64,000 bases of DNA from an uncultured Gemmatimonadaceae bacterium (GCA_963790305.1 CAWBOC010000013.1:128001-192000), one strand, 5' to 3'; numbered from the stretch's first letter, positions 7,748 to 61,013 are shown. The notes: generated by a model from the letters alone, not told the origin. Made by a program: numbers and translations.

Positions 7748-8896
7748 ATGCCGCGTCTTGAACGCAGCGCGCCGGTGAAGCGGCGCCCAGCCCTTCACAC
7801 GCTTCGCCTAACGCGAGCGGCGCTCCTCGCGCTCGTGGTGCCCGCCATCGCCCTCGCACAAGAGGCGACGGAGCGGCGCACCCACGTGGTCAAGACAGGG
7901 GATACGCTGTGGGATCTGGCCGGAGCCTATCTCAGCGATCCCTTTCTGTGGCCGGAGATCTACCGCATCAACACCGACGTCGTCGAAGATCCGCACTGGA
8001 TCTATCCCGGCGAGGTACTCCAGATCCCGGGCCCGGGTGAGCTGACGGTCGCTGCCGACCAGCCCCTCCCCGTCGAGCAGGGCGTCGAGGATCAGCGCCC
8101 CGTGGGCCCCACGATCTTCGCACGCGCCCAGTCGGGGCCGAACTATGGCCAGCGGAAGCTGACGGGGAGCCGTCGGGTCGCGACTCCCGACGACGTGGAG
8201 CGCGCCGCGGTTCGTGAGGGAGAGTTCATCGCCGCGCCGTGGATGGATCGAAACGGCGGGCCGGAGCAGCATGGCCGCATCGTCGCGGTCGCGGAGCTCC
8301 CTGGAATCGCGCAGGCGTCATATCCAATACGCGTCTCGCCGCAGGATCGCATTTACGTCACACTCCCGCGCGACGTCGCTGCCGCCGTCGGCGAGCGCTA
8401 TCTGTCGTACGAGCTGGGTCCGTCAATGCCGCAGGGGCAAATCGTTGTGCCTACGGGAATTCTCATCGTCGAGAAGCCGGCCACCGACGAGGCCACGCTG
8501 GTTCGTGTCGAGCGCATGTTCGGCGAGGTCAAAATCGGCAACCGCTTTATCCCGCTCGAGCGCATCCAGCTTCCCACCGACGCTCGGCCCGCTCCAGTGG
8601 ACCTCGGGGTCCGCGGTCGTGTGATCTGGATCGCAAGCAAGGCGGTGCTGCCCTCGGTTCAGCATTACCTCCTCATCGACGCCAGCCGTAAAGACGGTGT
8701 CAGCCTGGGCGACCAGTTCACGCTCATGCAGGGACGCGAGGAGCTCGATCGTGGGGTAAGACTGCCGGAGCAGCCTGTCGCACTAGCGCAGGTCGTACGC
8801 GTGACTGAGCGCGGCGCCACGGTGATGATCGTCGATCAAGTGCAGCCCAAGGTCCGTGAGGGCATGGAAGCGCGCTTGACGGCAAAGATGCCCTAG
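7748..8896 (+). CDS. Secreted LysM peptidoglycan-binding protein, TsaP-like
   Basis: Signal peptide; LysM HVVKTGDTLWDLA..YL.DPFLWPEIY..N......PHWIYPG; beta-rich C-terminus resembling the type IV pilus secretin-associated protein TsaP. Confidence 0.8.
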   Translation: MPRLERSAPVKRRPALHTLRLTRAALLALVVPAIALAQEATERRTHVVKTGDTLWDLAGAYLSDPFLWPEIYRINTDVVEDPHWIYPGEVLQIPGPGELTVAADQPLPVEQGVEDQRPVGPTIFARAQSGPNYGQRKLTGSRRVATPDDVERAAVREGEFIAAPWMDRNGGPEQHGRIVAVAELPGIAQASYPIRVSPQDRIYVTLPRDVAAAVGERYLSYELGPSMPQGQIVVPTGILIVEKPATDEATLVRVERMFGEVKIGNRFIPLERIQLPTDARPAPVDLGVRGRVIWIASKAVLPSVQHYLLIDASRKDGVSLGDQFTLMQGREELDRGVRLPEQPVALAQVVRVTERGATVMIVDQVQPKVREGMEARLTAKMP

Positions 8897-8925
8897 CAGC
8901 AGCGATGATGTAGATTGGGCGACGC

Positions 8926-9733
8926 ATGATCGCGATCGCCCATTCTCTCGCCATCACACTGTACCTCGGCGCCGCGGCTCTCGCTGCAGCGCCGTTCGCG
9001 CGTCCGGTCCCGGCGCCCGTGCGCGGTGTCACGACGCTGCTGGGGCTTGGCGTCGTCTGCGCATGTCATCGCCCTCCTCGATTTCGTGCGAGCGCATGGA
9101 CAGGCGCCGGTGTCCGGGCTGGGACCCGCGCTGTCCTTGGCCGCGCTCCTGCTCGCCGTGATACTGCTCGGCGTCGAGCTAATCGCGCACGAGGTGAGCC
9201 TGTCCCTGGTCGCTGCGCCACTGTCGGCAGCGCTCGCCGCGGTCGCGAATGTTGCCGGCCTCTCCCCGGTGTCCATGGCGAGTGGCGTGCAAGGAGCGTG
9301 GCTCGCGGCGCACGTTGCGCTGAGCTTCCTCGGCATCGCGAGCTTTGCCACTGGCGCGGCCGCGGGGGTCATGTACATGGTGGAGCGACGAGAGCTGAAA
9401 GCGCGGCGCTTCGGCGCCATCTTTCGCTTCTTTCCTCCACTGGACACCCTCGATCGCGTGAACCATCTCGCCTGCCTCGCGGGCGGGGCAACGCTGACGC
9501 TTGGCGTCGCGGTGGCTGTCGCGTACTCGGTCGAGTTCCGCACGGTAAATCTGCCGCAGATCCTGTGGGGAATGGCCGCGTGGCTGGCGTTGATCGTGAT
9601 TGCGATAGGCCGCGCAATCGGCGGCTGGCAGGCGCGGCGGGCAGCGGTCGTGACGGCGACTTCATTCGCCGCGGTTGTGCTGCTCTATGTCGCGCTGCGG
9701 ATGACTGGCGCGGCGGACGGCGGGTTTCTGTGA
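8926..9733 (+). CDS. ccsA: Cytochrome c assembly protein, CcsA/HemX family (frameshift near 9058)
   Basis: Multiple TM helices, WLAAHV, YM..RRELK, PPLDTLDR; directly upstream of sirC-hemA. Confidence 0.8.
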
Positions 9734-10341
9734 GCGGCTACCCCGTGCTCCTCGAGGGCCGAGCGATCACCGCACTCGTCGTCGGCGGCGGAAGCGTCGC
9801 TTCGCGGAAGGTGCGAGCGTTGCTCGCCGCGGGAGCCCGCGTTCGCGTGGTCGCGCCCTCGATCACCGCTGAGCTTCAAACGCTCGGCGAGCGCGAAAAA
9901 CACCTGACGATCGAAAAGCGTCGCTTTCAGGACAAGGACGTGCGCGAGGTGACGCTCGTCGTCGCGGCGACCGATGAGCGAACGACCAACTCTCGCATTG
10001 CGCGCATCGCGCGAGAGCACCATCGGCTCGTCAGTGTTTCCGATTTTCCGACTGAGGGGAGCTTCAGCGGGATGGCGGCGCATTGCTCCGGCGACGTCGT
10101 GATCGGCGTCTCGGCGGGGGGAGTGCCGCGCGCGGCGGCTCGGATACGGGATGCCATCGCCGAGCGGTTCGACGGGCGATACGCCGCGGCGATCGACGCC
10201 CTGCGATCGATGCGTCGGCGACTGCTGGACACCGGCGGTGCCGCAAAGTGGGAGCAGGCGATGCGGACGCTCCTTGACGAGCGGTTCTGCGCGCGTGTCG
10301 AGGGCGGCGAGATCACGGCCGAGGTCGACGCATGGCATTGA
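9730..10341 (+). CDS. sirC: Precorrin-2 dehydrogenase/sirohydrochlorin ferrochelatase (SirC/CysG N-terminal)
   Basis: YPVLL, VVGGGSVASRK, VVAATD, GVSAGG.PR; GTGA overlap with ccsA. Confidence 0.88.
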   Translation: MSGYPVLLEGRAITALVVGGGSVASRKVRALLAAGARVRVVAPSITAELQTLGEREKHLTIEKRRFQDKDVREVTLVVAATDERTTNSRIARIAREHHRLVSVSDFPTEGSFSGMAAHCSGDVVIGVSAGGVPRAAARIRDAIAERFDGRYAAAIDALRSMRRRLLDTGGAAKWEQAMRTLLDERFCARVEGGEITAEVDAWH

Positions 10342-13303: not shown

Positions 13304-13305
13304 TC

Positions 13306-13397: not shown

Positions 13398-13412
13398 ATG
13401 GAGTGTCAGCGC

Positions 13413-22522: not shown

Positions 22523-24050
22523 ATGGCCCAGCCCGTTGTTCTCGATGGCGCCTCACTCACCATTGACGATGTCCACCGAGTCGCGGTAGACCGCGCGCCG
22601 GCGACCCTCGCCGATGCCGCACGCGCGCGCGTCAGCGCCACGCGCCGCATCGTCGATGATCTCGTCAGGCGTCGAGAAGTGGTGTACGGCGTCACGACGG
22701 GGTTCGGAAAGCTATCCGAGGTGTCGGTGCCTCCGGAACGCCTTGCCGAGCTGCAAGTGAACCTCGTGCGAAGTCACGCCGCTGGCGTCGGTCCGTTGAT
22801 GCCGGAGCGGGAAGTGCGCGGCATGATGCTTCTTCGAGCGAACGTCATCGCCAAGGGATACTCCGGCGCACGTCCGGATCTCATCGACCTGTTGCTGGCG
22901 ATGCTCAACGCCGGCGTATATCCGCCAATCCCGGAGCAAGGCAGCGTGGGGGCGAGCGGCGACCTCGCGCCACTCGCGCACCTCGCCCTCGCTCTCATCG
23001 GCGAGGGCGATCTCATTCGCGACCACCAGCGTGCTCCGGCCGCCTCCGTCCTCCGGGCGGTCGGCCTAACGCCGCTCACGCTCGGCCCAAAGGAAGGCAT
23101 CACGCTCATCAACGGAACGCAGGCGCACACGGCCATAGCCGCGCTGGCACTGCACGACGCGACGCGTCTCTGGACGACCGCTCACGTCGCCGGAGCAATG
23201 TCGCTGGAGGGATTGCTCGGGACTCCGACGGCGTTCGATTCGAGGCTGCACGACGCGCGAGGCCAGCGCGGGCAGCGGCGTTCCGCGGCGTTACTGCTCG
23301 AGCTCCTCGCGGATAGCGAGATTCGCGAGTCCCACCGCCACGACGATCCGCGCGTGCAGGATGCCTACGCCTTACGATGCATGCCGCAGGTACATGGGGC
23401 GGTGCGCGATGCCCTCGAGTTCGCGGCCGGCATGGTTGGCGCGGAGCTGAATGCGGCGACGGACAATCCGCTCGTCTTCGAGGATGGCACGATCCTCAGC
23501 GGCGGGAATTTTCATGGCCAACCGGTGGCGATGGCGCTCGACGTCCTCGCGATCGCGCTGACGAATCTCGCGACGATCTCGGAGCGGCGCATCGACCGAC
23601 TCGTTCATCCCGATCTCAACCAGGGATTGCCGCCCTTTCTCACTGGCGATGCTGGCGTATCGTCCGGATTCATGATGGCGCAGGTGACCGCGGCGGCGTT
23701 GGCGAGCGAGTGCAAGGTGCTCTCTCATCCGGCGAGCGTGGACACCATTCCCACCGACGGGAACAAGGAAGACGTCGTCCCAATGGCCATGGGCGCGGCA
23801 TGGAAGCTTCGCCGCGTGATCGACAACCTGGGACAACATCCTCGCGATCGAGCTCATGTGCGCGGCGCAGGCGATCGACTGTCGTGCGCCGCTCGCGCCT
23901 GGACGCGGGGTCGCGGCCGCGCATCAGCGCGTGCGCGAGCTGGTTCCGCCGCTCGAGCATGATCGCGTCCTGAGCACCGACATTGCCGAAATCGCAACCG
24001 CGGTGCGGCGTGGCGTCTTTGCCGCCGACGTGGTGGAGCTCGTCGGGTGA
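22523..24050 (+). CDS. hutH: Histidine ammonia-lyase (frameshift near 23830)
   Basis: [11 protein letters not shown] motif [28 protein letters not shown]. Confidence 0.96.
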
Positions 24051-28185: not shown

Positions 28186-28250
28186 GCAGTTACGCCCCAA
28201 CGATTTCCCCGTACCTGGCTCACCGCGTCTCCGGAGTTCACCAAGCGCCG

Positions 28251-31022
28251 ATGTCCAACGTCCCCAAGCTCAAGAAACGAGCGGGCGAGTTCGAACAGAA
28301 AAAGCAGTTCGACAAGGCGCTGGCGGTCTACCTCCAGATCCTCGAGGAAGTCTCGGGGAGTGAGGACGAAGCCGACGTCGCTCTGTTCAACCGCGTCGGC
28401 GACCTCATGCTGCGACAGGGCAACGTCAGCGAGGCCGTCGACCATTACGAGCGCGCGGTCGACCTGTACGCCGAGGGCGGCTTTTTCAACAACGCCATCG
28501 CCCTCTGCAACAAGATCCTTCGCAACGCCCCCGGGCGTAACTCGATCTACTACAAGCTCGGGAAGATCAGCGCGAAGAAGGGCTTCACCAACGACGCCAA
28601 GCAGAACTTCCTCGAGTACGCCGACCGCATGCAGAAAGGCGGCAAGCTCGACGAGGCGTTTCGCGCGCTGAAGGAGTTCGCTGACCTGTGCCCCGATCAG
28701 GACGACATCCGCCTGATGCTGGCGGATCAGCTGGTGAAGAAAGACCGCAAGGCGGAGGCGATCGAGCAGCTCCAGGTGCTGTACGAGCGGTACGATTCGG
28801 AAGGCCGCTCGAGCGAAGCGCGGGCTACCATCGACCGAATGAAGGCGATCGATCCCGCGGTGGAGCCGCAGGCGCCCGGGGCGCGTGCAGCTCCGAAGAG
28901 TGGCGATCTGGTGTTCCTCGACGTCGGCTTCGACGCTCCCGCTCCTCCCAAGACGCGGCCCTCGCGGCCGGCCGAGGAGCCGCCTCGACCGAAGCCACCG
29001 CCCGCTCGTCGGCCTTCCGAGCCGGTCAGGCGGCCGTCGATGGATGGCTTGCCGATGATCGATGCCGAGCTGCCGCCTCCACCGGGGGCACCCCCACCGC
29101 TGTCGCACGGAGCCCGCGCGGCTGGTGCCGACGACGGAATGGACGCCTCCCCCGGACTCTTGGCCGGCTTCGAGCAGACCGCGTTAGGCGCGGACGCCTC
29201 GCCGCCGGCCGTGCCGCTGCTCGACATCGAGCCGACGGCGCTCGGGAGCCGCACGGGGCGCGCCGCCTCCGATCTTCCGCTGATCGATTCCGAGCTGTCC
29301 GTTCCCGACGTTTCGGATGACGAGAGCGTCTCGCTGCCGGGCGAGCTCCCGATGATCGAGATCCCGGATACCGACGCGCTCCGCAGCGCGCAGCGCCTCG
29401 ACCTCATCATGCCCGAGGACGAGGCGGTGAATCCGCTGGCGGATCTCAACGCATCCGGGTCGGCGATCGAGCCCGATGAGCTGCCGCTTCACCCCGATCC
29501 ATCGCGGAGCTCACTGACGGACGGTACCGAGTGGGAGATTCGACTCGAAGACTCGGCGTTTCTCGACGGTGACGATACGCCAAGTGGCGGCGCCGATCTC
29601 CCGCTCATCCATCCCCCGGGGCAGGACGGCGCACAGACGGCGGTGGACGAAGATCCAGCTGCTGCCCGTTCGGCGCTCGTCGAGCGGCTGCGCGACGCCG
29701 TTGCCGATGATCCGGGGAACTGGCAGCTTCACCGGCAGCTCGGTGAGGCGCTCCTCGAGGACGGTGATCGCGAGGGCGGCATTGACGAGCTCGAGATCGC
29801 CATGGTCGGATTCGAGAGCACGTCGGACCATGCCAGCGCCCGCGCGGTCGCCGACGAGATTCTCCATCTCGATCCCAACTCGGTCCGGCATCATCAGAAG
29901 CGCGTCGAGTACTCGTTCCTGCTCAACGACAAGGCGCGGCTGGTGGATGCCTATCTCCAGCTCGCTGACTGCCTTTTCCGGAATGGCCACGAGGAAAAGG
30001 CGCAGGCGGTCTACCAGCGCGTGATCGACATCGCGCCTGACGATGCGCGTGCCCAGGCCGCGCTGGCGGTCTTTGGCGACATCTCCGGGGGTGCACCCGC
30101 TGAGCCTGAGTCTTCGTTCGCTCCGCCGCCGGCTGCGCCGTTGCGCAGCGCTCCGCCGGCGTCCCCTCCGCCAGCCGCCCCATTGCGACCGGCGCCAGCG
30201 AAGCAGCCGCCCAAACCCGCGCCGGCACCACGGACGGAGCGGGTGCGCGACCCCATTGGCGATCTCCGCAACGCGGTGAAGGACCTTCCGCTCATCGAGG
30301 ATACGCCGTCCCCGCCCGCCAAGGCTCGGCCGGCGCAACCCGCACCGGCGGCGAAGGCGGAACCACCAAGGCCCGCGGCGAAGCCCGAGCCGCGACGCTC
30401 GGAGCCGGTTCGTCAGCCCAAGCGTCCTGAGCCAAAGCGACCGGAGCCCAAACGGCCCTCACGCCCCGCGAAGCATGTCGGATCCGGGAGCGATGACGAT
30501 TTCGTCAACCTCTCGGACTGGCTGAGCGAAGACAAGACGCCGAAGTCGACGCGCATGGTCGCCGACGTGCGGGAGCCCGAATCCGATCAGGTAGACTTTT
30601 CGGACATGCTGGAGCGGTTCAAGCAGGGAATCGCCGAAAACGTCTCCGACGAGGATCATGAGGCGCATTACGATCTCGGTGTCGCGTACAAGGAAATGGG
30701 CCTGCTCGACGAGGCGATCGCCGAGTTCCAGAAAGCGCTGCGTGGGGTCGAGCACCGCATTCGGACCTTCGAGGCGTTAGGCCAGTGCTTCATTGAGAAG
30801 GGGCAATACCAGATTGCCGTCACCATTCTCTCACGCGCTCCGGCCGAGCCGGGCGCCACCGACGAGAAACTCGTCGGCGTGCTGTATCTTCTGGGCTATG
30901 CATTGGAGGCCCTCCAGAAGTTCAACGACGCGCTCGTGTATTATGAGCGTGTGTTCGCCGTCGACATCACCTTCCGCGACGTGAACGACCGTCTCGCCGC
31001 GCTGGAGCGAGTAGCGCAATGA
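28251..31022 (+). CDS. Large TPR protein, three TPR clusters with Pro/acidic linkers (SgmX-like architecture)
   Basis: N-terminal TPRs, central TPRs, C-terminal HYDLGVAYKEMGLLDEAIAEFQKA. Confidence 0.85.
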   Translation: MSNVPKLKKRAGEFEQKKQFDKALAVYLQILEEVSGSEDEADVALFNRVGDLMLRQGNVSEAVDHYERAVDLYAEGGFFNNAIALCNKILRNAPGRNSIYYKLGKISAKKGFTNDAKQNFLEYADRMQKGGKLDEAFRALKEFADLCPDQDDIRLMLADQLVKKDRKAEAIEQLQVLYERYDSEGRSSEARATIDRMKAIDPAVEPQAPGARAAPKSGDLVFLDVGFDAPAPPKTRPSRPAEEPPRPKPPPARRPSEPVRRPSMDGLPMIDAELPPPPGAPPPLSHGARAAGADDGMDASPGLLAGFEQTALGADASPPAVPLLDIEPTALGSRTGRAASDLPLIDSELSVPDVSDDESVSLPGELPMIEIPDTDALRSAQRLDLIMPEDEAVNPLADLNASGSAIEPDELPLHPDPSRSSLTDGTEWEIRLEDSAFLDGDDTPSGGADLPLIHPPGQDGAQTAVDEDPAAARSALVERLRDAVADDPGNWQLHRQLGEALLEDGDREGGIDELEIAMVGFESTSDHASARAVADEILHLDPNSVRHHQKRVEYSFLLNDKARLVDAYLQLADCLFRNGHEEKAQAVYQRVIDIAPDDARAQAALAVFGDISGGAPAEPESSFAPPPAAPLRSAPPASPPPAAPLRPAPAKQPPKPAPAPRTERVRDPIGDLRNAVKDLPLIEDTPSPPAKARPAQPAPAAKAEPPRPAAKPEPRRSEPVRQPKRPEPKRPEPKRPSRPAKHVGSGSDDDFVNLSDWLSEDKTPKSTRMVADVREPESDQVDFSDMLERFKQGIAENVSDEDHEAHYDLGVAYKEMGLLDEAIAEFQKALRGVEHRIRTFEALGQCFIEKGQYQIAVTILSRAPAEPGATDEKLVGVLYLLGYALEALQKFNDALVYYERVFAVDITFRDVNDRLAALERVAQ

Positions 31023-34682: not shown

Positions 34683-34731
34683 GCCGCGTCTCGCCGCCCC
34701 GGGCCTGGGGCAGTTCCTCTGAGGGCATTGC

Positions 34732-38199: not shown

Positions 38200-38700
38200 A
38201 TGATCGACCTACGCTACGTGAAGAAGCTCGTCGAGATGCTCGATGAATCGAGCGTCGATTCCATTGAGATCTCGACGGACAAGGGGATGAAGATCCGCAT
38301 CTCGAAGACGCCCCAGCAACGGGGGACGGTGCAGGTTGCGCCGCCCATGCCCATCCCGATGCCGGTGACGCCTCTCGCGCCCAGCCGGGCTACCCCTAGC
38401 GAGTCCCTCCCGGCGGTGGGGGAGGGGGAAGGGCCCAAGGCCGAGCCCAAGTCGAAGATGCTGGAAGTGAAGTCCCCCATGGTCGGCACCTTCTACAAGT
38501 CGCCCGAGCCAGGGGCGCCCGCTTACGTAACGGCGGGGGCGCGCGTCTCTAAAGGACAGATCCTCTGCATCATCGAAGCAATGAAGATCATGAACGAGAT
38601 CGAGTCCGAGTTCTCGGGCGTCGTGCGGGAGGTCCTCGTCGAGGACGCGCACCCGGTCGAGTATGGACAAGTCCTTTTCCGCATCGACCCCAATGGCTGA
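38200..38700 (+). CDS. accB: Acetyl-CoA carboxylase biotin carboxyl carrier protein
   Basis: SPMVGTFY, biotinylation motif EAMKIMNEI. Confidence 0.97.
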   Translation: MIDLRYVKKLVEMLDESSVDSIEISTDKGMKIRISKTPQQRGTVQVAPPMPIPMPVTPLAPSRATPSESLPAVGEGEGPKAEPKSKMLEVKSPMVGTFYKSPEPGAPAYVTAGARVSKGQILCIIEAMKIMNEIESEFSGVVREVLVEDAHPVEYGQVLFRIDPNG

Positions 38701-41329: not shown

Positions 41330-42075
41330 TGCGCGTCGACGTGTACTTCGGGGTGCAGGGGCTGCAGCCGGCGAGCGTGCAGGGCCGGCTGGTCGCCGTG
41401 ATCGACGTGCTGCGCGCGTCGACGGTCGGCGCCATCGCGCTCGCCAACGGCGCCCGCGCGGTCGTCCCGCTCGAGAGCTCCGACGAAGTGATCACCCGCT
41501 CGAAGAGCTTCGACCGAACGGAGGTCCGGCTCGCGGGGGAGCGAAAGATGAATCCGATTCCGGGATTCGACTTCGGCAATTCGCCTCGGGAGTTCACCCG
41601 CGAGGCGGTGGAGGGGAAGACGGTGCTGTTCACGACCACCAACGGCACCGGCGCATTCCTCGCCGTTCAGGGCGCGCGTGATGTGGTCGTCGCCTCGTAC
41701 GTCAACTTCACCGCCGTGCTCGCCATGATGCGCGCGGCAGTGCGCGCGGGAACGGACGTCAGCATCATTTGCGCGGGGCGCGAGAAGGAATTCGCCCTCG
41801 AGGATGCCGCGTGCGCCGGGCGCTACGTGCGCCAGCTCACGACGCGGACACCGGACATGGAGATGAACGATGCCGCGCGCGCGAGCGAGCTGATCGCGAA
41901 GCGCTATGGCGACCGCATCGACCAGCTCTTCGCCGAATCCGCGCACGGCCGCGCGTTGTCGGAGGCGGGCTTCGCCGAGGATCTCGTGACCTGCGCGCAG
42001 ATCGACTCGCATCCGATCATCCCCATCTATCAGGACCGGCAGATCACCAAGCTCGGTCCAGAACGCGAGCGGTAG
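41329..42075 (+). CDS. comB: 2-phosphosulfolactate phosphatase family protein
   Basis: [36 protein letters not shown]. Confidence 0.9.
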
Positions 42076-42084
42076 GGTAGGCCG

Positions 42085-44426
42085 TTGGGTAGCACGACGT
42101 TGCGGCGCGAGCTCGCCGGCATCGCACTTCTTCTCTTCGCGCTGTTCCTGGGCGCCGCCATCGCCTTTCCCGGCGCGGACGCCACGAGCTGCATGGCCGC
42201 GCGCGGTCCGACGGGACCGGTAGGAGCGTGTTTGCGGTCGGTGTTCGTCGCCACGCTTGGCCTTCCGGCGACCGTTCTGCTCCCGCTGCTGCCCCTGGTG
42301 TACGCCTTACGAGTCTTCCGCCGCATCGAGGCCGACACCGATCGCTCGTGGCTCGTCTTCCTCGGGCGGCCTCGCCTTGTTGCTGCCGGTGGCGATCGCG
42401 CTGGCGATGGGTGCGGCGCGCGAAGTCGAGCCTGCACACGGGCCTGTGGGGCAGCTTCGCCGCGTTCTACCTCCAGCGTGCCTTCGGCTTCGCCGGCGCC
42501 TGGATCATCGTGATGCTCGCTCTTCAGCGTGCTGACGGCCGTGACGCTGGCGTGGAATCCGGTGCGCGTCCTGATCGGCTGGAAGCCGAAGCCAACCGCG
42601 CTGGTGATGGATCACGCGCCGTCGAAGGCGAAGCGGCGGTGGCCGGTGGGGGAAGAGAACGTCGTCGACCGCGAGGCCGCGGCGGTAGCGCTGGCGCCGA
42701 CGCCGGAGGAGATGCCGGGCGTCGATCCATCGCTGCGGGATACTCCCGTCGAGGTGAGTGCGGAACGCGGAATTCGGAAGAAGAAGCGGACCAAGGCCGA
42801 CCTGGCTGCAGAGCACGCCGAGAAGATCGCGGCGGTGATCGACGCGAACGCGTCGGTGCCCGAGGTCGCGGCGGACGAGCTGCCGACGCCCGACATTCTT
42901 TCGCCGCCCCCGCCACGGAATCGGGACTCGTCGCAGCGCGAGCTCGACGCAATGGGCGTGAAGCTCATGGACGCGCTGCGCACCTTCCGTGTCGAAGGGG
43001 AGCTCGTCGGGCGCACGACGGGTCCCGTCGTCACGCAATTCGAGATCGAGCCCGCAGCAGGGGTGAAGGTGCGCCAGATCGCGAATCTCTCGAACGATCT
43101 CGCGCTCGCCATGCGCGCGCAGAGCATCCGCATCGTGGCGCCGATCCCCGGCCGCGGCGCCGTCGGCGTGGAGGTGCCCAACCCGGCGCCGGAGATCGTT
43201 GGCGTTCCGCGAGCTGCTCGAGTCGAAGGACTTTCAGCAGGCGCGCGCTGCGCTGCCGATCGCGTTAGGCAAGGATCTCGAGGGCAAGCCCGTCATCGCC
43301 GATCTGGCGAAGATGCCGCACCTGCTCATCGCCGGGGCAACCGGGTCCGGCAAGTCGGTGTGCGTGAACACGCTCATCACGAGCCTCGTCTACCGGCACA
43401 CGCCGAAGACGCTGCGCTTCCTGATGGTCGATCCGAAGATGGTGGAGCTGTCGGTGTACAATCAGCTCCCGCATCTGCGCCACAAGGTGATCACGGACAA
43501 TCGCGATGCCGCGGCCGTGCTGAAGTGGGCCGTGCTGGAGATGCAGGAGCGCTACGAGCTGCTGGCCGCGAACGGGTGCCGCAACATCCAGGACTTCAAT
43601 CGCAAGGCGCCAGGACGGTCTGCCGCTGTCCATGCCGAAGCGCGCGGACATCGCGTTCGAGGATCTCACGTACCGCGGCGGCGTTCTCCCGTACATCGTC
43701 GTCGTCATCGACGAGCTCGCCGACCTCATGATGACGGTCCAGGGCGAGGTGGAGACGCCGCTGGCGATGCTCGCGCAGAAGGCGCGCGCCATCGGCATCC
43801 ACCTGATTCTCGCGACGCAGCGCCCGAGCGTGAACGTCATCACCGGGCTCATCAAGGCGAACTTCCCCAGCCGGATCGCATTCCGCGTCGCCTCCCAGGT
43901 GGACAGCCGCACGATTCTCGACGGCATCGGCGCGGAGTCGCTGTTAGGCAACGGCGACATGCTCTTCATCCCGCCGGGCAAGTCCGAGCCGTCGCGCCTT
44001 CAGGGCGCGTTCATTCCGAGCGAGGACACCGAGCGGCTCATGCAGTGGTATCGCGACGAGCGCGACGCGAAGCGGAAGGCGTACGAGGCGCAGGGGCTCG
44101 TGCTCGAGGAGCCGGTGGCGGCGGAGCCGGACATTCTCGAGGCCGTGCGCCAGCGTGAGGCGCTCGATCAGGGCGGGGATGAGGGCGAGGATGCGGAGGT
44201 TGGCGACCGGGACAAGCTCTTCCGCGAGGCGGCCGAGGTCGTCCTCCACCACCAGCAGGGATCGACGTCGCTCTTGCAGCGGCGACTGAAGGTCGGCTAC
44301 GGCCGGGCGGCGCGAATCATCGACCAGCTGCACGCAGCGGGCATACTCGGGCCGCCGGACGGCTCCAAGCCGCGCGATGTGCTCGTGGGCCTCGAGGATC
44401 TCGACCGGATTTGTGGACCGAGGTGA
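42085..44426 (+). CDS. ftsK: DNA translocase FtsK (several frameshifts)
   Basis: N-terminal TM region, GPVVTQFE, PHLLIAGATGSGKS, DPKMVEL, IDELADLMM, ATQRPSV, gamma domain STSLLQRRLKVGYGRAARIID. Confidence 0.95.
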
Positions 44427-44457: not shown

Positions 44458-44951
44458 ATGGGGTTATCAGTCCCTTCTCCGTCAGGTCCATCATGACCTG
44501 CATCCCCATCTTCATGCCCCACCGCTCAGCGGCGCCGACCGTCTCGAGCGCCACCGCCGGTTGCTTCTCCGCCATCATGCGGCCAAGGGGAGTCTCGAAG
44601 AACGCGATCATCTGATCGATCTGCTCCTTCGTGTAGTGACGATCGTGCACACCCACCAGGATCGTCACGAACTCCCCGATGTTGTCCGTCGCGCGCTTGA
44701 TGAACTCGTTCCAGAACACGTCCGGGATGTCAGGCTGCGCCTTCTTCTGCGCGTCCAGCCCGACCTTCATTCCCTCGAGCATCGTCCGCTCGGCGCGCGT
44801 CAACGCGATGAGCTTGCGGATCGCTTTCTCCTTCTCGGGATCGACCCGCTTCTCGGCGACCGCTGATCCGGCCTGCGCGTTCGGCGTCTGTGAGATGGCG
44901 GGCGACGCGCTGACAAGCGTTAGGCCGATGAGGATCGGCGATGAGGCGCAT
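44456..44951 (-). CDS. Exported DUF2059-domain protein (frameshift in signal peptide near 44935)
   Basis: Repaired N-terminus MRLIAILIGLTLVSASPAISQ; motif HYTKEQIDQMIAFFETPLGR. Confidence 0.75.
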
Positions 44952-45001: not shown

Positions 45002-45941
45002 TCACAATGCGCGAAGGCCGGCGTCTCGCAAGGGCTCGGTCGTGGCCATGCCGCAGTAGCGACGATTCGCCTTCCCGCTCGCCACGAGGGCGATCGGCAT
45101 GGATGCGTCGTCCACCGCTCCCATAGCATGCGCGACCGCGTGAGGAGCGCCTACGCTTGAAAACTCGGCGAGTCGAAACCCGCCGGCTTCCAGCTCGGCC
45201 GCGAGCTCGTCCTCGGAGAAATGGTGCGCGAAGTCGGGGACCAGATCGTCGCCAAGCTCCGCCTTTTGCGGCCCCGAATCGCGCGAAGGACATTAGCAGT
45301 CCTCGTGACGATGCGCAGATACCGAATCGCTTGCTGGCGCGCGAAGACAGAAACCAGGACCGGTGCGCCGTTAGGCAGGTGCGGCCGCAACTGCTTCAGG
45401 AACCGGATGCGAGTCGACGCGTGCTGCATCAGCGTATAACTGCGACCACCCAATGATCGCCCCGTCGCATGTTGGAATATCGGAGTGGGCATTCGTCCCG
45501 CGGGGCGAGGGCGACGCGCGCGCGATCCTTCACGACCCAGAATGCTCGTTGGCACTTTGAAGCGAGATCGGGGTGGCACTCGAACGCACGGACCACGGCG
45601 AGGCCGCGTCGCTCCAGCGCAACGACTGTCACGACCGCCCCCAGCCGACGAGACCAGAACCGAGCGACAACCCAGGAAGTGCCGCTCGAAGGATCCGCGC
45701 CTCCCAGCGGAAGAATCCCGAGAAGATTGTAGTGCTCGTCGTGGTACATGCGCGTGCGTCGGTAGTACAGTCTCGTTGGTCGCATACAGCGAGGTCCGGT
45801 CGAGGAGGCCGAGCCATGTGCCGATGAAGACGCCCCGCGCTGCCGTGATCGAGCCTTCGAACCACCGACGTCGAGGCGTCGTAGGCCCGGACTGTCCACG
45901 GCAGATGCGACCGTCGTCCATGCCGAGGAATGAGGAGCCAT
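45002..45941 (-). CDS. Class I SAM-dependent methyltransferase-like protein with many indels (errors or pseudogene)
   Basis: Pieces across frames: WLGLLD, YHDEHYNL, VLVSSAGGGR, ALERRG, FECHP, SYTLM, ELAAELEAGGF; ends are inferred. Confidence 0.55.
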
Positions 45942-46070
45942 TCCCAAATGTATCACGTCCCCGTTGCCAGGTCGGGCAGCGCATCCGTGACGTGCAACGG
46001 GACGCAACGGAGCCACTGGCATGCGAGCGATGATGACGACCCTCACGACCGCTCCGTATCTTGTGCCTCC

Positions 46071-48268: not shown

Positions 48269-48331
48269 AAGGGGCCTTTCGAGTCCCGGTCGCTGGCCCG
48301 GATCCACGAGCGCCTCGTATATTGCGCGTCT

Positions 48332-51128
48332 ATGCAGGCTTCCGAGATCCGCGCGCGCTTTCTCTCGTACTTCCAGGCGCACCAGCACTCCGTCCGGCCG
48401 AGCTCGCCACTCGTTCCCGCGGATGACCCGACGTTGCTCTTCACCAACGCCGGCATGGTGCAATTCAAGAAGATCTTCCTCGGCCAGGAGCAGACCGAGT
48501 ACGGTCGTCGCGCCACGACGGTCCAGAAGTGTGTGCGCGCGGGCGGCAAGCATAACGATCTGGAGCAGGTCGGACACACCTTCCGGCATCACACCTTCTT
48601 CGAGATGCTTGGCAACTTCTCGTTTGGCGACTACTTCAAGGCCGAGGCGATCCGCTTCGCCTGGGAGTTCGTCACCGAGGAGCTTTCGCTCGACCCGCGG
48701 CACCTGCGGGTGACCGTGTATCACTCCGACGACGAGGCGCGGGACCTCTGGCGCGATGTGGCGCAGCTGCCGCCCTCGCGCATCTACGGCCTGGGCGAGA
48801 AGGACAACTTCTGGCAGATGGGGGAGACCGGCCCGTGTGGGCCGTGCTCGGAGATCTACGTCGATCTCGCCCACGTCGCGAATGACTGGGTGTTCCCGGC
48901 CGGTGCGACCGGTGAATGGACGGAGCGCGACCGCGCCGACTTCTCGCTCGAGGCCTTCGTCGTCGGTGCGGAAGCGGGTCGCTTTCTCGAGATCTGGAAC
49001 CTCGTGTTCATGCAGTTCGATCGGTCCGCGGACGGAACGCTGACGCCCCTTCCGAAGCCATCGATCGATACCGGGGCCGGCCTCGAGCGCATTGCCGCGG
49101 TCATGCAGGGGACAACCAGCAACTTTCACACGGACCTCTTCACCCCGATTCTTCACACCATTGAGGAGGTCGTGGGCGTTCCCTACTGGGGACGGGAGAG
49201 CGACGAGGCGCGTCGCGGTATTGCCGCGCATTTGCCCGGCGGCGTGCGCCGGATCATTCCGAACGCGGTCGAGCCGGCGTCCTTTCGAGTCATCGCCGAT
49301 CACGCGCGCGCGGTCGCGTTCCTGCTCGGCGATGGCGTCTTCCCATCGAACGAAGGACGGGGCTACGTCCTGCGCCGAATCCTCCGTCGGGCCGTTAGGC
49401 ACGCCTGGCTGCTCGGCCGGCAGGAGCCGACGCTCGCGCCGGTCGTTCAAGCCGTGATCGAGAGCATGGGGGGCATCTATCCCGAGCTCCTCCATCGGGC
49501 GAAGCACATCGTGGACACCACGACGGCGGAGGAGGAGCGCTTTCTCGCCACGATCGATGCCGGAATGGCGCGGTTCGACGAGCTTGCACCGCCCGCCACG
49601 ACGCAGGGATCTACCGCGGTACGGGGGACGATCTCGGGTGAGGAGGCGTTCATCCTGTACGACCGCTACGGCTTCCCGATCGACCTCACGGAGCTCATGG
49701 CGCGCGAGCGGGGCTACACCGTCGACATCGCGGGCTTCGAGGCCGCGCTCGAGACACAGCGTCAGCAGTCGCAGGCCGATCGGAAGGCGAAGAAAATCGG
49801 CGTGGCGGCCGACCAGCTGACGGAGGGCGCGTGGGAGGCGGAGTCTGCGCCCGCGACGCCTGTTGGACCCGCGCGACATCAGCGAAACGGCGTTCGTGGG
49901 GTACGAGACCGTCGAGATCGAGACGCAGGTGACCGCGGTTCGCCGCCTCGGTGACGACCGGCTCGCGGTGATGCTGCGCGAAACGCCGTTCTACGCCGAG
50001 TCTGGCGGCCAGATCGCCGACGTCGGAGAGATCATCGGCGAAGGGTGGCGGGTCGACGTCGACGACGTGCGCCGCGTCGACGGCCGGGTGGCGGCGTTAG
50101 GCAAGCTCACCGGGTCGTTCAAGTTCGGCCGCGTCATCGCGCGCGTGCCGAGCGATCGCCGCCGGGATACCGAGCGCAATCACACCGCGACCCATCTGCT
50201 GCACGGTGCGCTGCGGGAGGTCCTCGGCGAGCACGTGCATCAGGCGGGCTCACTCGTCGCGCCGGACCGGCTTCGCTTCGACTTCACGCACCACGGGCCC
50301 GTCAAGCCCGAAGCGCTGACGGAGATCGAAGAGCGCGTCAATCGCGCCATCTGGGCCGACGTCGACGTGCAGTTCACGCAGAAGTCCTATCGTGAGGCGG
50401 TCGAAGCGGGCGCCATGGCGCTGTTCGGCGAGAAGTACGGCGACGTCGTGCGCGTCGTCTCCATTCCGGGATACTCCGTGGAGCTGTGCGGCGGAACGCA
50501 CGCGCGCAACACCGGACAGATCGCGCTCTTCAAGATCGTGGCGGAAACCGGCGTGGCGGCCGGCGTGCGCCGGATCGAGGCGGTCACGGGCCCGCGCGCC
50601 TACGAGCTCATTCGCGAGGAAGAGCGGCGACTTCAAAAGATCGTCGACCTCGTGAAGGGAACGTCCGACGGCGTCGTGAAGCGGGTCGAGGCGCTGGTGG
50701 AAGAGCGGCGTCAGCTTCAACGCCGGCTCGATGACAGCCTGCGTGGTGGGGGCGATCAGGTGGCAACGCTCGTCGCCGGTGCACGACAGGTGAATGGCGC
50801 GCGCGTGGTTGCCGCCGAGGTGCGTGTCGGCGACGCGAAGGAGCTACAGGCGCTGGCGGATGCGCTTCGCGAGAAGCTCGGGACGGGCGTGGGGGTGTTG
50901 GGCGCGTCGATCGGGGACAAGACGACCATGCTCGTCGTCGTCACCGACGATCTCCGTGAGAAAGGGGTACGTGCCGATGCCCTCGTGCGCGACATTGCGG
51001 CGATCGCGGGCGGGCGTGGGGGTGGCAAGCCGCACCTGGCGCAGGCTGGCATTCCCGACGCCACGAAGCTTCCTCAGGCGATCGAGCACGCCCCGGGGAT
51101 CATCGCGCGTGCGCTCGCGACCGCCTGA
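48332..51128 (+). CDS. alaS: Alanine--tRNA ligase (frameshift near 49860)
   Basis: DPTLLFTNAGM.QFK, HHTFFEMLGNFSFGDYFK, NHTATHLLH, ELCGGTH, GRGGGKP..AQAG. Confidence 0.98.
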
Positions 51129-51132: not shown

Positions 51133-51472
51133 GTGCGCCAGCCGTCACCGGGGACAGTCGGTGCCTGGCTGGAGGGTCGCACGCCTCCGCCTCCCCAGAT
51201 GCTGCGATCGCGAATCCTGCTGGCGTTAGGCGATGGACTCGGCCGCGCCGTGGCGGACACCGAGGAGGTGTGCCTCGATGCCGCGGAGCGCGTGCTGTCC
51301 CATCTGTTCTCGGACGGCACGGGAGGCCGACACGAGGCAGTCGACTTGCTGGCAGCCGACGCGCTGGTGACGTACGCCCTCGAGTTCGCCGCCGAGACGC
51401 CGCCGAGAGTTCGAGGTCAGCGCGACGCTCGCGCTCGAGCGCTTTGGACAGCTTGCACGGGGATGCGCATGA
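51133..51472 (+). CDS. Hypothetical protein (probable frameshift near 51405)
   Basis: WL..R.PPPP..L..RI...A.DLLAADALVTYA.E.AAE; repaired stop overlaps the next ATG (ATGA). Confidence 0.55.
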
Positions 51473-52949: not shown

Positions 52950-53509
52950 TGGCCAAGACCTCTGATGCGCTCCGAGAGCTGGCTGCTTTGGCCGGGCGCG
53001 TCGCCGACACGGTGGCGGCCGACCTGGATCGCGCGCTCGATCTCGTGCGCGAGACCGTGCGCGGCGGAGGGACGCTCTTCTTCTGCGGAAACGGCGGTAG
53101 TGCGGCCGACGCGCAGCATCTGGCGACCGAGTACGTGGTGCGGTACATGAAGACGCGGCGAGCGTACCCCGCCGTGGCGCTGACGACGGACACATCCCTC
53201 CTCACCGCGGCGGGGAATGATCTGGGCTTCGAGGAGATCTTCGCGCGCCAGGTCGAGGCGCTCGCGAAGCCTGGCGATCTGCTGATCATCCATTCGACGA
53301 GCGGAAGCTCGCCTAACGTGCTCCGTGCGGCTGAAGCAGCTCGTGCCAAGCGCGTGAAGGTCCTGTCGTTTGCCGCACGCGATGGTGGCGAGCTCAAGGC
53401 ACTGTCCGATCACATCGTCGTCGTACCTACGGATCGTACTGACCGGGCGCAGGAGATCCATCTCTGCATGGAGCACGCGATCTGCGAGGCGATCGAGCGT
53501 GATCTGTAG
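52949..53509 (+). CDS. gmhA: Phosphoheptose isomerase
   Basis: CGNGGSAADAQHLATE, LTTDTS.LTA.GND.GF..IFARQVEAL, STSG.SPN, QEIH. Confidence 0.95.
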   Translation: MAKTSDALRELAALAGRVADTVAADLDRALDLVRETVRGGGTLFFCGNGGSAADAQHLATEYVVRYMKTRRAYPAVALTTDTSLLTAAGNDLGFEEIFARQVEALAKPGDLLIIHSTSGSSPNVLRAAEAARAKRVKVLSFAARDGGELKALSDHIVVVPTDRTDRAQEIHLCMEHAICEAIERDL

Positions 53510-53524
53510 CCGAGCTGCTCGTAA

Positions 53525-55102: not shown

Positions 55103-56071
55103 GTGATCCCAATCCTCTTCACCGGTGGTACGATCTCGATGCGCCAGGATCCCGCAATCGGCGGTGCGATCCCGACGCTGTCGGGACGCGATATCCTTGC
55201 CGCGACACGCGGCATCGAGGAGGTCGCTGACTTCGAGGTAGAGGAATGGGGGGCGTATCCAGGTCCGCACATGACCGTCGAGCGGATGTGGGCGCTTCGA
55301 AACAGGATCGCCGAGCATATCGAGCGTCCGGAAGTGGACGGTGTCGTCGTCACGCATGGCACGGACACGCTCGAGGAATCCGCGTACCTCAACGCCCGCA
55401 CGATTGCCGCGCACAAGCCGATCGTATTCACCGGCGCGATGCGGACCGCGAGCGAGCTCGGCTGGGACGGACCGTCGAATCTGATCGACGCGGTTCGTGT
55501 GGCCGCGAGCGAGGAGTCGCGCGGCTACGGCGTGATGGTGACGCTCTCGGGGCGGGTATTCGCCGGCCTCGACGTGACCAAGGCGCACACGCATTTGCTC
55601 GATGCCTTCGAGAGCCCGGGGCTCGGCCCGATCGGCGTCATCGACGATGGCAATGTGATCTTTCGTCGTGCGCTCCCCCCTTCGCCCCCGCTTCTCGCGC
55701 CGCCGTCGCCCGCGCTGCCGATCGATATCGTCGCCGCGTACCCGGGCGCGGACGCTCGGCTCCTCGATGCTGCTCGGGTTGACGCGTTAGGCGTCGTCAT
55801 CTCCGCGATGGGACGGGGGAACGTGCCGCCCGCGATGGTGTCTGGGATCGAGCGATGGATTCGGGCCGGGAAGCCGATTGTCGTCGCGTCACGAGCGCTT
55901 CGAGGGCGCGTCGGACGTACATACGGGTATCCGGGGGCCGGACGCCGATTGCACGACCTCGGCGCTGTGTTCGCTGGCTCGCGCCGTCCGCAACAGGCGC
56001 GAATCGAGCTCAGTCTTGCGTTGGGTGCCGGGCTGACGGGGGGGGAGTTGAGGCAGCTCTTCGAGGAGTGA
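55103..56071 (+). CDS. L-asparaginase/glutaminase family protein
   Basis: TGGTISM, HGTDTLEESAY, FTGAMR, DGPSNL, GRGNVP. Confidence 0.94.
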   Translation: MIPILFTGGTISMRQDPAIGGAIPTLSGRDILAATRGIEEVADFEVEEWGAYPGPHMTVERMWALRNRIAEHIERPEVDGVVVTHGTDTLEESAYLNARTIAAHKPIVFTGAMRTASELGWDGPSNLIDAVRVAASEESRGYGVMVTLSGRVFAGLDVTKAHTHLLDAFESPGLGPIGVIDDGNVIFRRALPPSPPLLAPPSPALPIDIVAAYPGADARLLDAARVDALGVVISAMGRGNVPPAMVSGIERWIRAGKPIVVASRALRGRVGRTYGYPGAGRRLHDLGAVFAGSRRPQQARIELSLALGAGLTGGELRQLFEE

Positions 56072-56083
56072 CGAAGCCAGTTT

Positions 56084-56479: not shown

Positions 56480-56527
56480 TGGTGCCCAAACATAAACATC
56501 TGAAGGGCCATTTCCAAGCCTTTCGAC

Positions 56528-57850: not shown

Positions 57851-57861
57851 CCCACACGACG

Positions 57862-58389
57862 ATGTTCTTTCGCGGAAAACAATTCGACACGTCGATCTGG
57901 AAGCGGTTTCGCACGGCCGCCGACGGGTACTCGTTCGCCAAGGAGACCGACTACTACGCCGCGCATGTCGTCGCGAACGCGGAGCGCGTCGTCGACCTCT
58001 TCCACGCGCTCATGGAGCACCTTCCGCCCGCGGTGGACGTCGCGATCGAGGATCGACGCTCGGGCCGTCGATGGAAGGGGGAGAGTCTCGCGCTGCCCGA
58101 CGTTCGCGACGCGATCGCTCGGCTGAAGACGGCCCTGGCCGGATCGGGCGGCGTCGAGATCGCCGTGTACACGAGCGAGGATCAACTGACGCTCAATCCG
58201 GTGCTCGAGCTGTTCATCTACGCGCGCAGCGATCAGTGGCTCTACATCCTGCAGGGGAAGGGGCTGGAAGAGCGGCGGACGGTGCGCACGAAGAGCTGGC
58301 GGCTGAAGCAGCAGGAGTTCCCGCCGGCTCCAGAGCTCAGCCAGGCGCTGGAGCAGGCCGCGACATCGTTAGGTCTTCAGCCGGCGTGA
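57862..58389 (+). CDS. Hypothetical protein
   Basis: Uninterrupted 175-aa ORF with host-like codon usage; GTGA overlap with the next gene. Confidence 0.75.
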   Translation: MFFRGKQFDTSIWKRFRTAADGYSFAKETDYYAAHVVANAERVVDLFHALMEHLPPAVDVAIEDRRSGRRWKGESLALPDVRDAIARLKTALAGSGGVEIAVYTSEDQLTLNPVLELFIYARSDQWLYILQGKGLEERRTVRTKSWRLKQQEFPPAPELSQALEQAATSLGLQPA

Positions 58390-59116: not shown

Positions 59117-59123
59117 GCTGCGC

Positions 59124-60505
59124 ATGCCGCGTAACCGACCGCGCACTCTTCCGGCGAAGCGCCCGCGCGATCCGTCGCTCTTCGCTCCCCCGGCGTCGTC
59201 GCAGCCGCTCGCGGCGCGCATGCGTCCGCGAACCCTCGACGAGTTCGTCGGCCAGACGCATCTGCTCGCTCCCGGCAGCGCGCTGCGCGACGCGATCGAG
59301 AAGGGCAACGTCGGCTCGATGATCTTCTGGGGCCCGCCCGGCTCCGGAAAGACGACGCTCGCCTTCCTCATCGCGCAGTACACCGATCGCGAGTTCGTCC
59401 CGTTCTCCTCGGTGACGGAAGGCGTGCCGCGCGTGCGCGAGATCATCGCCGAGGCCGAGGCGCGGCTCGAGACGGGGCGGGGCACGATCCTGTTCGCCGA
59501 CGAGATCCACCGCCTCAACAAGGCGCAGCAGGACGCGTTTCTCCCGCACGTCGAGGCGGGCACGATCACGCTCATCGGGGCGACGACGGAAAACCCATCG
59601 TTCGAGATCATTGGCGCGCTGCTCTCGCGAAGCCGCGTGTTCGTGCTCGAGCAGCTCGGCACCGACGATGTCGCCACGCTCGTCAGGCGCGCTGTCAGCC
59701 GATGAGGAGCGCGGGCTCGGCGCAGATGTCGCTGCGCGTCGACGACGACGCCGATGCACGCTGATCGCGACGGAGGCGGACGGCGATGCGCGGCGCGCGC
59801 TCACGGTGCTCGAAGCGTCGGCCACTCACGTGGGCGGCGGCGGACACATCACGGTGCCAGGTCGCGCGCGATGCGCTGCAGAAGCGGTTCGCGCGATACG
59901 ACAAGGGCGGCGAGGAGCACTACAACCTCATCTCGGCCTATCACAAGGCGCTTCGCGGCAGCGATCCGCAGGGCGCGCTGTACTGGCTGGCGCGGATGAT
60001 CGACGGCGGCGAGGATCCGATGTACATCGCGCGCCGAACGGTCCGCTTCGCGGCCGAGGACGTCGGGCTCGCCGATCCGGACGCGCTGCGACTCGCGCAT
60101 CGCCGCGCGTGATGCGTATCACTTTCTCGGATCGCCGGAGGGCGAGCTCGCGCTGGCCGAGGCGGCCGTCTATCTGGCGACGGCGCCGAAGTCGAACCGC
60201 GTGTACGAGGCGTGGAACGAGGCCATGCGGCTCGCGCGCGAGTCGCCGGCCGAGCCGGTGCCTTTGCATATTCGCAACGCGCCGACGAAGCTGATGAAGG
60301 AACTGGGGTATGGCGATGGGTATCAGTACGCACACGCCGTCCCCGAGGCATACATCCCGCAGGAGTATCTTCCGGACCGGCTGCGGGGACGCTGCTCTAC
60401 GAGCCGGGCCCGTTCGGGTTCGAGCAGGACATCGCGAAGCGGCTCGCGTGGTGGACGGAGCTGAGAGAGAAAGCCGCGGGGGCGCGGCGCTCGGAGGACA
60501 CGTGA
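59124..60505 (+). CDS. rarA: Replication-associated recombination protein A (several frameshifts)
   Basis: [75 protein letters not shown]. Confidence 0.95.
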
Positions 60506-60535
60506 AGGCATTCAACGCACGAGGGAGACAACGGT

Positions 60536-61013
60536 ATGCGTAAGCTCGCGTTGGTCGGACTGGCCGCGGCGACGGCGTTTGGCACGTACGGATGTGCGAG
60601 CGTCGCTCGCAACGCGTTCGCCGAGCCGGTGGTCACGCTCCGCGATGTGAAGCTCCAGGGCATCGGACTCACCGGTGGGTCGTTCGACGTCGTGCTCAGC
60701 GTCTACAATCCGAACGGGTATCGCCTGGATGCGACGCAGCTGAATTACAATCTGTTCGTGGACACGCTGCGATTCGCGAATGGCACGCTGGCGCAGCAGT
60801 TCACGGTGCAGGAGAAGGATTCCACGCTCGTGCGCGTGCCGGTGAATTTCAGCTACGCCGGCGTCGGCGAGGCCGGTCGACAGCTGCTGAACACGGGGTC
60901 GGTGAACTATCGCGTGGCGGGCGACGTGACGGTGGCGACGCCGGTCGGGCAGCTTCAAGGTTCCGTACGACCGGACCGGCCGGTTCTCGACGTTAGGCGG
61001 GTCGAGTCGGTAG
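60536..61013 (+). CDS. LEA type 2 (WHy domain) lipoprotein (frameshift near 60948)
   Basis: Lipobox TYGC; L.VYNPNGY.L; repaired tail SFKVPYDRTGRFSTLGGSSR*. Confidence 0.85.

Follow-up and report, generated by a model that had tools for sequence, protein, structure and literature searches.

What kind of signal is an 8-letter word that recurs in gene after gene? The question is raised by a 64-kb stretch of DNA from an uncultured Gemmatimonadaceae bacterium (G000:C13:128001-192000; hereafter, the window), in which the octamer CGTTAGGC is repeated, and the first-pass annotation of the window had listed Chi, FtsK-orienting polar sequences (KOPS), and uptake-type signals as candidates. The window comes from an assembly of 4.31 Mb (66% GC; 13 contigs; 94% complete), and no relevant paper on the word itself was found in the full-text literature searched, which did not cover subscription journals. 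We find that CGTTAGGC, with its core GTTAGG, is a strand-symmetric, lineage-specific "genome word" that lies in genes, stop codons, and spacers, and that the force maintaining it acts on DNA and not on protein or codon usage. As to what that force may be, an uptake-sequence-like self word spread by molecular drive appears to be the best reading, held tentatively and at less than an even chance; of the options first listed, only the uptake type fits.

In the whole genome there are 855 copies of CGTTAGGC (419 on the plus strand and 436 on the minus strand), compared with the 40 to 68 expected under Markov models of orders 1 to 3, and by z-score it is the most over-represented 8-mer. The heptamer GTTAGGC occurs 1105 times, and GTTAGG is the most over-represented 6-mer (1547 copies; 231 to 300 expected). 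The enrichment survives a codon-preserving null: when synonymous codons were shuffled 60 times inside each of the 2945 called open reading frames (ORFs), 13.5 ± 3.3 sense and 29.4 ± 4.3 antisense copies remained, versus 361 and 273 observed. The word accounts for 295 of the 1119 TTA codons. All four open frames are occupied in called genes, as listed here with the share of compatible peptide positions that the word fills; 226 of the 855 copies lie outside called genes.

xCG-TTA-GGC: 293 copies; 295 of 2948 [APST]-L-G positions filled (10%)
xxC-GTT-AGG-C: 65 copies; 66 of 2197 x-V-R-x positions filled (3%)
xGC-CTA-ACG: 134 copies; 135 of 1687 [RSGC]-L-T positions filled (8%)
xxG-CCT-AAC-G: 137 copies; 138 of 649 x-P-N-x positions filled (21%)

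Given these shares, neither orientation is favored. In 49 copies the word provides the stop codon, and CGT-TAG-GC is the most frequent context of TAG stops. Word density climbs with GC content, from 0.14 per kb at 62 to 64% GC to 0.25 per kb at 67 to 68%, while TTAG/CTAA tetramers other than the word drop from 0.58 to 0.21 per kb over the same range. Information is limited to C-GTTAGG-C, and around it only codon periodicity is seen, with no conserved flanks. A longer repeat, or a remnant of an integron attC site, was ruled out as the source of the word, since the copies have uninformative flanks and lack inverted partners. Among unrelated 8-mers, AATGCGGA/TCCGCATT is the next most over-represented in this genome (628 copies; about 100 to 113 expected).

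The window contains 15 copies of GTTAGGC (12 plus and 3 minus), a number never reached in 100 shuffles that preserved dinucleotides (mean, 1.97; maximum, 6). For CGTTAGGC the count is 14 (11 plus and 3 minus), against a shuffle mean of 0.89 and a maximum of 4, with 0 of 100 reaching 14. Our recount recovered both totals given in the first-pass annotation, along with strands and coordinates, and also the two GTTAGGT variants that it had placed at 58368 (plus) and 63009 (minus). It had estimated by eye that about half of all TTAG and CTAA tetramers sit in the context of the word, which is right because 18 of the 34 (53%; 19 TTAG and 15 CTAA in all) fall inside GTTAGG/CCTAAC. Its gene names and codon contexts were borne out, with Pfam backing the labels, for the hutH-like lyase (aromatic amino acid lyase), two TPR proteins, the C terminus of FtsK (FtsK gamma), the DUF2059 gene, alaS (alanyl-tRNA synthetase), the gmhA-like gene (SIS domain protein), and asparaginase. 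The claim that every copy is intragenic was upheld for 12 of the 15 GTTAGGC copies, as judged with a crude gene caller that placed no gene at 43264, 45370, or 51225. The copies and variants are as follows.

7806..7813, minus strand, CGTTAGGC: antisense in a plus-strand LysM-domain gene, CGC-CTA-ACG
23064..23071, minus strand, CGTTAGGC: antisense in the hutH-like aromatic amino acid lyase gene, GGC-CTA-ACG
29182..29189, plus strand, CGTTAGGC: sense in the TPR gene at 28131-31022, GCG-TTA-GGC
30775..30782, plus strand, CGTTAGGC: sense in the same TPR gene (28131-31022), GCG-TTA-GGC
35706..35713, plus strand, CGTTAGGC: sense in the TPR gene at 34723-36648, CGC-GTT-AGG-CAG
43263..43270, plus strand, CGTTAGGC: ftsK region, frame ambiguous (TAG is the stop of ORF 42228..43268 in one forward frame, GCG-TTA-GGC in another); conserved in G004 and G005
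43942..43949, plus strand, TGTTAGGC (7-mer exact): sense in the FtsK C-terminal/gamma-domain ORF, CTG-TTA-GGC
44918..44925, plus strand, CGTTAGGC: antisense in the minus-strand DUF2059 gene, GGC-CTA-ACG; a lineage-specific gain, with CGTCAGGC/CGTCAAGC at that site in G004 and G008
45369..45376, plus strand, CGTTAGGC: no called gene; inside the minus-strand ORF 45151..45984
49393..49400, plus strand, CGTTAGGC: sense in the alaS N-terminal ORF, GCC-GTT-AGG-CAC; kept in G003, G004, G005, and G008 with variable flanks
50095..50102, plus strand, CGTTAGGC: sense in the alaS C-terminal ORF, GCG-TTA-GGC; conserved in 4 of 4 congeners
51224..51231, plus strand, CGTTAGGC: directly beyond the end of the alaS ORF, no called gene; GTTAGG core in 4 of 4 congeners
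53311..53318, minus strand, CGTTAGGC: antisense in the SIS-domain (gmhA-like) gene, TCG-CCT-AAC-GTG; specific to G000, with CCGAAC in 4 of 4 congeners
55785..55792, plus strand, CGTTAGGC: sense in the asparaginase gene, GCG-TTA-GGC
58367..58374, plus strand, variant CGTTAGGT: TCG-TTA-GGT; full word at this site in G005
60991..60998, plus strand, CGTTAGGC: sense in an LEA_2-domain gene, GAC-GTT-AGG-CGG
63009..63016, minus strand, variant CGTTAGGT: no called gene

Two of these loci are split. The alaS gene occupies two overlapping frames (48269-49954 and 49821-51128), and ftsK apparently runs over several frames at about 42.2 to 44.4 kb (region 40714-44426); these splits may be real frameshifts or assembly indels. 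Separately, an intergenic tandem repeat of about four 9-bp units (GGCGCTA plus two variable bases) lies at 61020-61058. Short matches to it are dispersed on many contigs of G004, G005, and G008, sometimes in 27-bp steps, and it accounts for other over-represented words of the genome (AGGCGCTA, CTAGAGGC, and GGCGCTAG).

The word is kept in relatives. Where 19 kb of the window could be aligned to four congeners, 10 of 12 GTTAGG sites were kept in all aligned species amid variable flanks, and the other 2 were gains, either specific to G000 or common to G000 and G005. In the alignment with G003 (175 kb; 78.6% identity), 18 of 31 copies have stayed intact, versus 19.6% of 8-mer windows overall; in that with G005 (45 kb; 81.5% identity), the values are 10 of 14 and 24.9%. 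Relative to other 8-mers, retention of the word in congeners is about threefold higher. Private copies were equally many in the relative and in G000 (13 and 13 for G003), and in a hand count 18 of 25 nonshared copies in called genes showed only synonymous differences in the codons overlapping the word. Typical word-creating changes were Leu CTC/CTG to TTA, CTC to CTA, CGG to AGG, and CCG to CCT. Because copies are conserved above background and private ones are mostly synonymous, the word is both maintained and turned over, against codon bias. The lineage-specific DNA-level signal that the first-pass annotation had proposed is therefore upheld by the rank of the word among 8-mers, by the codon shuffle, and by its conservation in orthologues.

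Neighboring copies keep apart at short range. There are 4 gaps of 200 bp or less (33.6 expected under a Poisson model) and 30 gaps of 200 to 500 bp (47.9 expected), while above 500 bp the ratio of observed to expected gaps is 1.0 to 1.16. For all gaps up to 500 bp (34 observed; 81.5 expected) the ratio is 0.42, and 40 control 8-mers of equal abundance gave 0.80 to 1.67. The repulsion is the same for direct and inverted pairs, and spacing is alike in G162 (7-mer coefficient of variation, 0.73; gaps of 300 bp or less, 15 versus 32.5 expected). Long gaps are not reduced, with an observed/expected ratio of 1.00 above 5 kb and a longest gap of 54 kb; since they are no rarer than in the Poisson model, there is no sign of selection for coverage. 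We also considered whether word-free stretches are prophages or islands, and this was ruled out, as the six stretches scanned encode ordinary genes. The largest begins in a sugar-nucleotide/glycosyltransferase locus, and the other five are housekeeping; among the genes in these core-free stretches are those for trehalose synthesis, lpxC/B/K, murJ, uvrC, glmS, purD, recQ, a sigma-70 factor (rpoD-like), methylmalonyl-CoA mutase, era, a release factor, and lysS.

Orientation bears directly on the Chi/KOPS proposal of the first-pass annotation, in which the word would be a replication-oriented recombination signal or a guide for FtsK. At one copy per 5 kb, the word is about as dense as Chi in E. 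coli, and local strand runs do occur (12:3 in the window and 80:50 in 200 kb of G162). The 12:3 bias arises because 41 of the 46 called genes in the window are on the plus strand; left of 24 kb, both copies are in antisense frame in plus-strand genes. The polarity switch suspected near 24 to 29 kb is not real, given the near equality of the two strands genome-wide, and the suggestion that orientation follows the chromosome finds no support in GC skew. In 50-kb bins of positive skew there are 174 plus and 163 minus copies, and in bins of negative skew 234 and 263; on contig C5, where GC skew turns at about 400 kb, the counts are 41 plus and 45 minus on one side and 52 and 52 on the other. Overall, 437 of 834 copies (52%) point the same way as the G-rich strand. 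In addition, neither RecC nor PDDEXK_1 (the AddAB-type nuclease domain) was found in G000 at its 94% completeness. The word as a polarity signal is already refuted, and a Chi or KOPS function is hardly credible.

The word is unevenly distributed among relatives. All nine genomes of the genus of G000 carry 380 to 1000 copies (220 to 360 for a reversed control word), while other genera of the family mostly have fewer than 40, apart from G016 with 6360. We defined a carrier in a sample of 151 genomes of the order as one whose word count is at least twice that of the control word, and 13 genomes qualified; the tallies for this sample take in the unpublished genomes G015 and G090, both low, and no conclusion rests on either. 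Contrasts within genera are steep: 3896 and 4141 versus 66 copies in g38, 835 versus 8 in g18, and 561 versus 11 in g44. In G162, 200 kb holds 130 copies versus 3.0 expected. On a tree of 41 genomes, made by quick search from a single universal 1030-amino-acid protein (41 rows; 1050 columns), the trait changed at least 11 times, with 8 of the changes forced by well-supported branches. A second word, CGTTATGC, is enriched 6.9-fold in G000 (253 versus 37) and varies independently of CGTTAGGC across 50 genomes. Both words are enriched in the genus of G000 and in G016, G030, G041, and G074; CGTTAGGC alone is enriched in G124, G154, G162, and G081, and CGTTATGC alone in G142 and G036.

Both words are identical to core boxes of integron attC sites. 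The published attC consensus is RYYYAAC for the R'' box and GTTRRRY for the R' box, with GCCTAAC as the R'' box of attCaadB (PMC12901181). In non-carriers, the few copies of the word are grouped in same-strand arrays 0.5 to 1 kb apart, that is, in cassette arrays, where attC takes the form GCCTAAC...GTTAGGC. Throughout the arrays of the order each cassette is closed by (C)GTTAGGC or CGTTATGC, and the word stands at nearly every attC (G021:C95, G103:C23, G162, G124, and G041). G000 itself encodes an integron integrase, IntI (C9:694984-695919; 449 bits), at the head of a chromosomal integron (C9:694984-719400) whose array lies downstream of intI on the same strand, the inverted-integrase layout. 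The intI gene is followed by no fewer than 22 attC sites, each about 135 bp long and all with a common conserved internal sequence, and more copies are found at C8:12685-14029 and C7:274395-274533. Among about 24 R' boxes, CGTTCTGC occurs about 11 times, CGTTATGC about 10 times, and CGTTAGGC once. The array holds 3 word copies in 24 kb, with no clear depletion. The idea that the dispersed words mirror the attC boxes resident in G000 was rejected for the weakness of the match, as CGTTAGGC is present at 1 box of about 24 and CGTTCTGC, the commonest box, is not enriched genome-wide (1.16-fold).

If the word is uptake-sequence-like, a sequence-specific reader at the DNA-uptake step would favor word-bearing fragments, homologous recombination of own-kind DNA would spread word-creating alleles in the population, and this molecular drive would push the word against codon and GC pressure. 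What the analysis shows is the pattern of copies, along with the presence of uptake hardware in the form of the ComEC channel and the type IV pilus retraction ATPase PilT; DNA uptake itself, an uptake preference for the word, and what would read it are inferred. Strand symmetry, frame independence, conservation combined with turnover, avoidance of short-range redundancy with no selection for coverage, and dialects would be better explained by molecular drive than by a mutational origin. These features match descriptions of the uptake signal sequence (USS) and the DNA uptake sequence (DUS). For both of these, strand symmetry with no replication-linked orientation is reported, and for USS also even spacing (PMC1939737).

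Several observations weigh against this uptake-like reading. The trait switches far faster than known DUS or USS. No alternative word was seen in 200 kb of the non-carrier G048; since that genome has no word of its own, the difference is one of presence or absence and not merely a change of dialect, and an explanation by dialect only was ruled out on this ground. ComEC and PilT discriminate nothing because they are equally present in non-carriers (50 of 50 genomes for each). ComP_DUS, the Pfam family of the Neisseria-type minor pilin receptor, was found in none of five genomes of the genus of G000, and its 2 hits above cut-off in 50 genomes are both in non-carriers. The identity of both words with the integron attC core is not explained by a simple uptake drive. 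That the word is absent from foreign DNA is unsupported because the largest word-free stretches hold housekeeping genes and not prophages, and on contig C13 the word is equally dense in sequence shared and unshared with G003 (0.19 versus 0.19 copies per kb). Finally, our literature searches gave no report of uptake or transformation for the lineage. As to the pilus machinery itself, the window encodes a PilT-family ATPase paralogue (38594-39865; 452 bits to TIGR01420), one of several in G000, where TIGR01420 gives 8 matches and at least 4 exceed its cut-off.

The reader might instead be intracellular, such that selection for binding by the integron integrase, another tyrosine-recombinase-like protein, or a nucleoid protein maintains the word. 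We consider this unlikely, if a serious contender. CGTTAGGC is the canonical integron R' core, used at nearly every attC in the arrays of the order, and CGTTATGC is an R' box of the integron in G000; at eight asymmetric base pairs, the word has the length of a recombinase half-site, and short-range repulsion fits steric exclusion or avoided recombination between near sites. IntI scores above the family cut-off in 89 of the 151 genomes, including 12 of 13 carriers and 77 of 138 others (naive Fisher P = 0.015). As the latter figure shows, IntI is common in non-carriers (G150 has three copies), so that it is not sufficient for the word and was ruled out as the determinant. The resident attC sites, mostly CGTTCTGC or CGTTATGC, also speak against such a reader, as do the dispersed copies, which lack attC architecture: they have neither an inverse-box partner nor conserved flanks, and only 4 pairs genome-wide lie within 200 bp. 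We also know of no route by which IntI recombination could write isolated in-frame copies, which would count against the integrase. Distinctly unlikely, in our view, is a "self" mark read by a nuclease or repair machine that replaces RecBCD/AddAB and restriction in carriers, the word serving as a tag like Chi but with no polarity relative to replication. An AddAB-like pair, a long PDDEXK_1 ORF, or RecC was found in 1 of 19 carriers versus 18 of 31 non-carriers, with ambiguous fragments in two carriers, and a C5 methylase in 1 of 19 versus 15 of 31; either kind was found in 1 of 19 versus 26 of 31 (naive Fisher P = 3e-8). At E values of 1e-10 or lower, PDDEXK_1 occurs in 41 of the 151 genomes and in 0 of the 13 carriers. 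Patchy gain and loss is typical of defense systems, and in small panels Vsr, HsdR, and N6_N4 methylases trend alike, as shown here together with the uninformative Cas1.

Vsr: 0 of 3 carriers; found in the non-carrier G048
N6_N4 methylase: 1 hit in 5 carrier genomes; 8 hits in 5 non-carrier genomes
HsdR: 0 of 3 carriers; 2 of 2 non-carriers
Cas1: 0 of 3 carriers; 0 of 2 non-carriers

This deficit of barrier genes in carriers is a lead, not a result. Corrected for kinship, the association comes down to 6 independent pairs, of which 4 to 5 are as predicted (sign test P = 0.06 to 0.375; not significant). The only carrier found with RecC, G099, is also the only one with a C5 methylase. Long gaps at the Poisson level give a nuclease-protecting tag no support, and the search gave no candidate machine. 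Missing barriers would suit the uptake reading equally, the absence of restriction and end-degrading nucleases being compatible with a lifestyle open to own-kind DNA. Of the genes flanking AddAB in G150, one was not found in G124, G154, G089, G000, or G008, and among these five the other matched only G154, on a different contig. That the word arises and persists through a bias in short-patch repair, either mismatch-specific or linked to a methyltransferase, as might hold for the highly iterated palindrome HIP1, seems very improbable. HIP1 (GCGATCGC) is a hyper-abundant palindromic 8-mer of cyanobacteria that lies in genes in all frames and is tied to cognate methylases; it is patchy among lineages, some of which have alternative words, and its function is unknown. 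CGTTAGGC behaves similarly, and G000 encodes an Eco57I/MmeI-like N6 methylase, of a kind that reads asymmetric sites (G000:C7:232989-236087; 1032 amino acids). This enzyme is single-copy in 50 of 50 genomes spanning three families (36 to 87% identity), a conservation unusual for a restriction-modification-type enzyme, and no alignment column tracks the trait, so it was rejected as the determinant. The best trait-linked column (E at residue 735) is phylogenetic because E is common to the non-carrier sisters G150, G010, and G062. The D12 methylase is uncorrelated as well, being present in the carrier G124 and the non-carrier G150 and absent from the carriers G162 and G016. Searches of the carriers G000, G124, and G162 gave no Vsr, C5 methylase, or N6_N4 methylase; the methylase regex prescreen was limited to the 2945 called ORFs, and others may be missed. 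A nonpalindromic word does not fit the HIP1 model, nor would a purely mutational process predict short-range repulsion.

Should the uptake-like reading hold, CGTTAGGC would be the first uptake sequence outside the Proteobacteria; should it fail, a new kind of genome-wide reader is left to find. To our knowledge, sequence-tagged genomes are known only from two proteobacterial families (DUS and USS) and from cyanobacteria (HIP1), and the origin of such genome words is still debated. The trait is now seen in an abundant, little-studied soil phylum, on or off between sister species and in two dialects, and these contrasts between relatives are natural material for finding the reader by comparative genomics. 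For the barrier-gene association, G099 is a useful exception. A broader proposal, which we rate as quite improbable, is that carriers have a DNA-acquisition syndrome in which the word serves as the address label and the uptake machinery is tuned to the attC core of integrons. Cassette arrays, in which each cassette bears one or two copies, and DNA of their own kind would then be preferentially imported, and carrier lineages would keep the integron integrase while shedding restriction systems and end-degrading nucleases. If this were true, natural transformation, cassette capture, and restriction loss would be joined in one system; we know of no study of any of the three in Gemmatimonadota.

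Set beside known systems, the word shares features with each. Like CGTTAGGC, Chi (read by RecBCD or AddAB) and KOPS (read by FtsK) are over-represented octamers of the core genome, but they are co-oriented with replication, and CGTTAGGC is not; nor were RecC and AddAB-type nucleases found in G000. The integron attC/attI core has letters identical to CGTTAGGC, but attC is an imperfect inverted repeat (R''-L''...L'-R') of about 60 to 140 bp at a cassette boundary, whereas the dispersed copies of CGTTAGGC are single, lie in housekeeping genes on both strands, and have no hairpin partner. HIP1, like CGTTAGGC, is a patchy octamer imposed on coding sequence, but HIP1 is a palindrome with cognate methylases, while CGTTAGGC is asymmetric and is tracked by no methylase tested. 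DUS of Neisseriaceae and USS of Pasteurellaceae differ from CGTTAGGC in host phylum, here Gemmatimonadota, and the likeness to them is one of sequence pattern. Unlike them, CGTTAGGC flips within genera, has no extended flanks, and equals the integron attC core, and no ComP-type receptor of the kind that serves Neisserial DUS was found for it. DUS and USS are described, as we find for CGTTAGGC, as short exact words with hundreds to thousands of copies, many of them within ORFs and in several frames, spaced more evenly than chance and divided into lineage dialects (PMC1939737).

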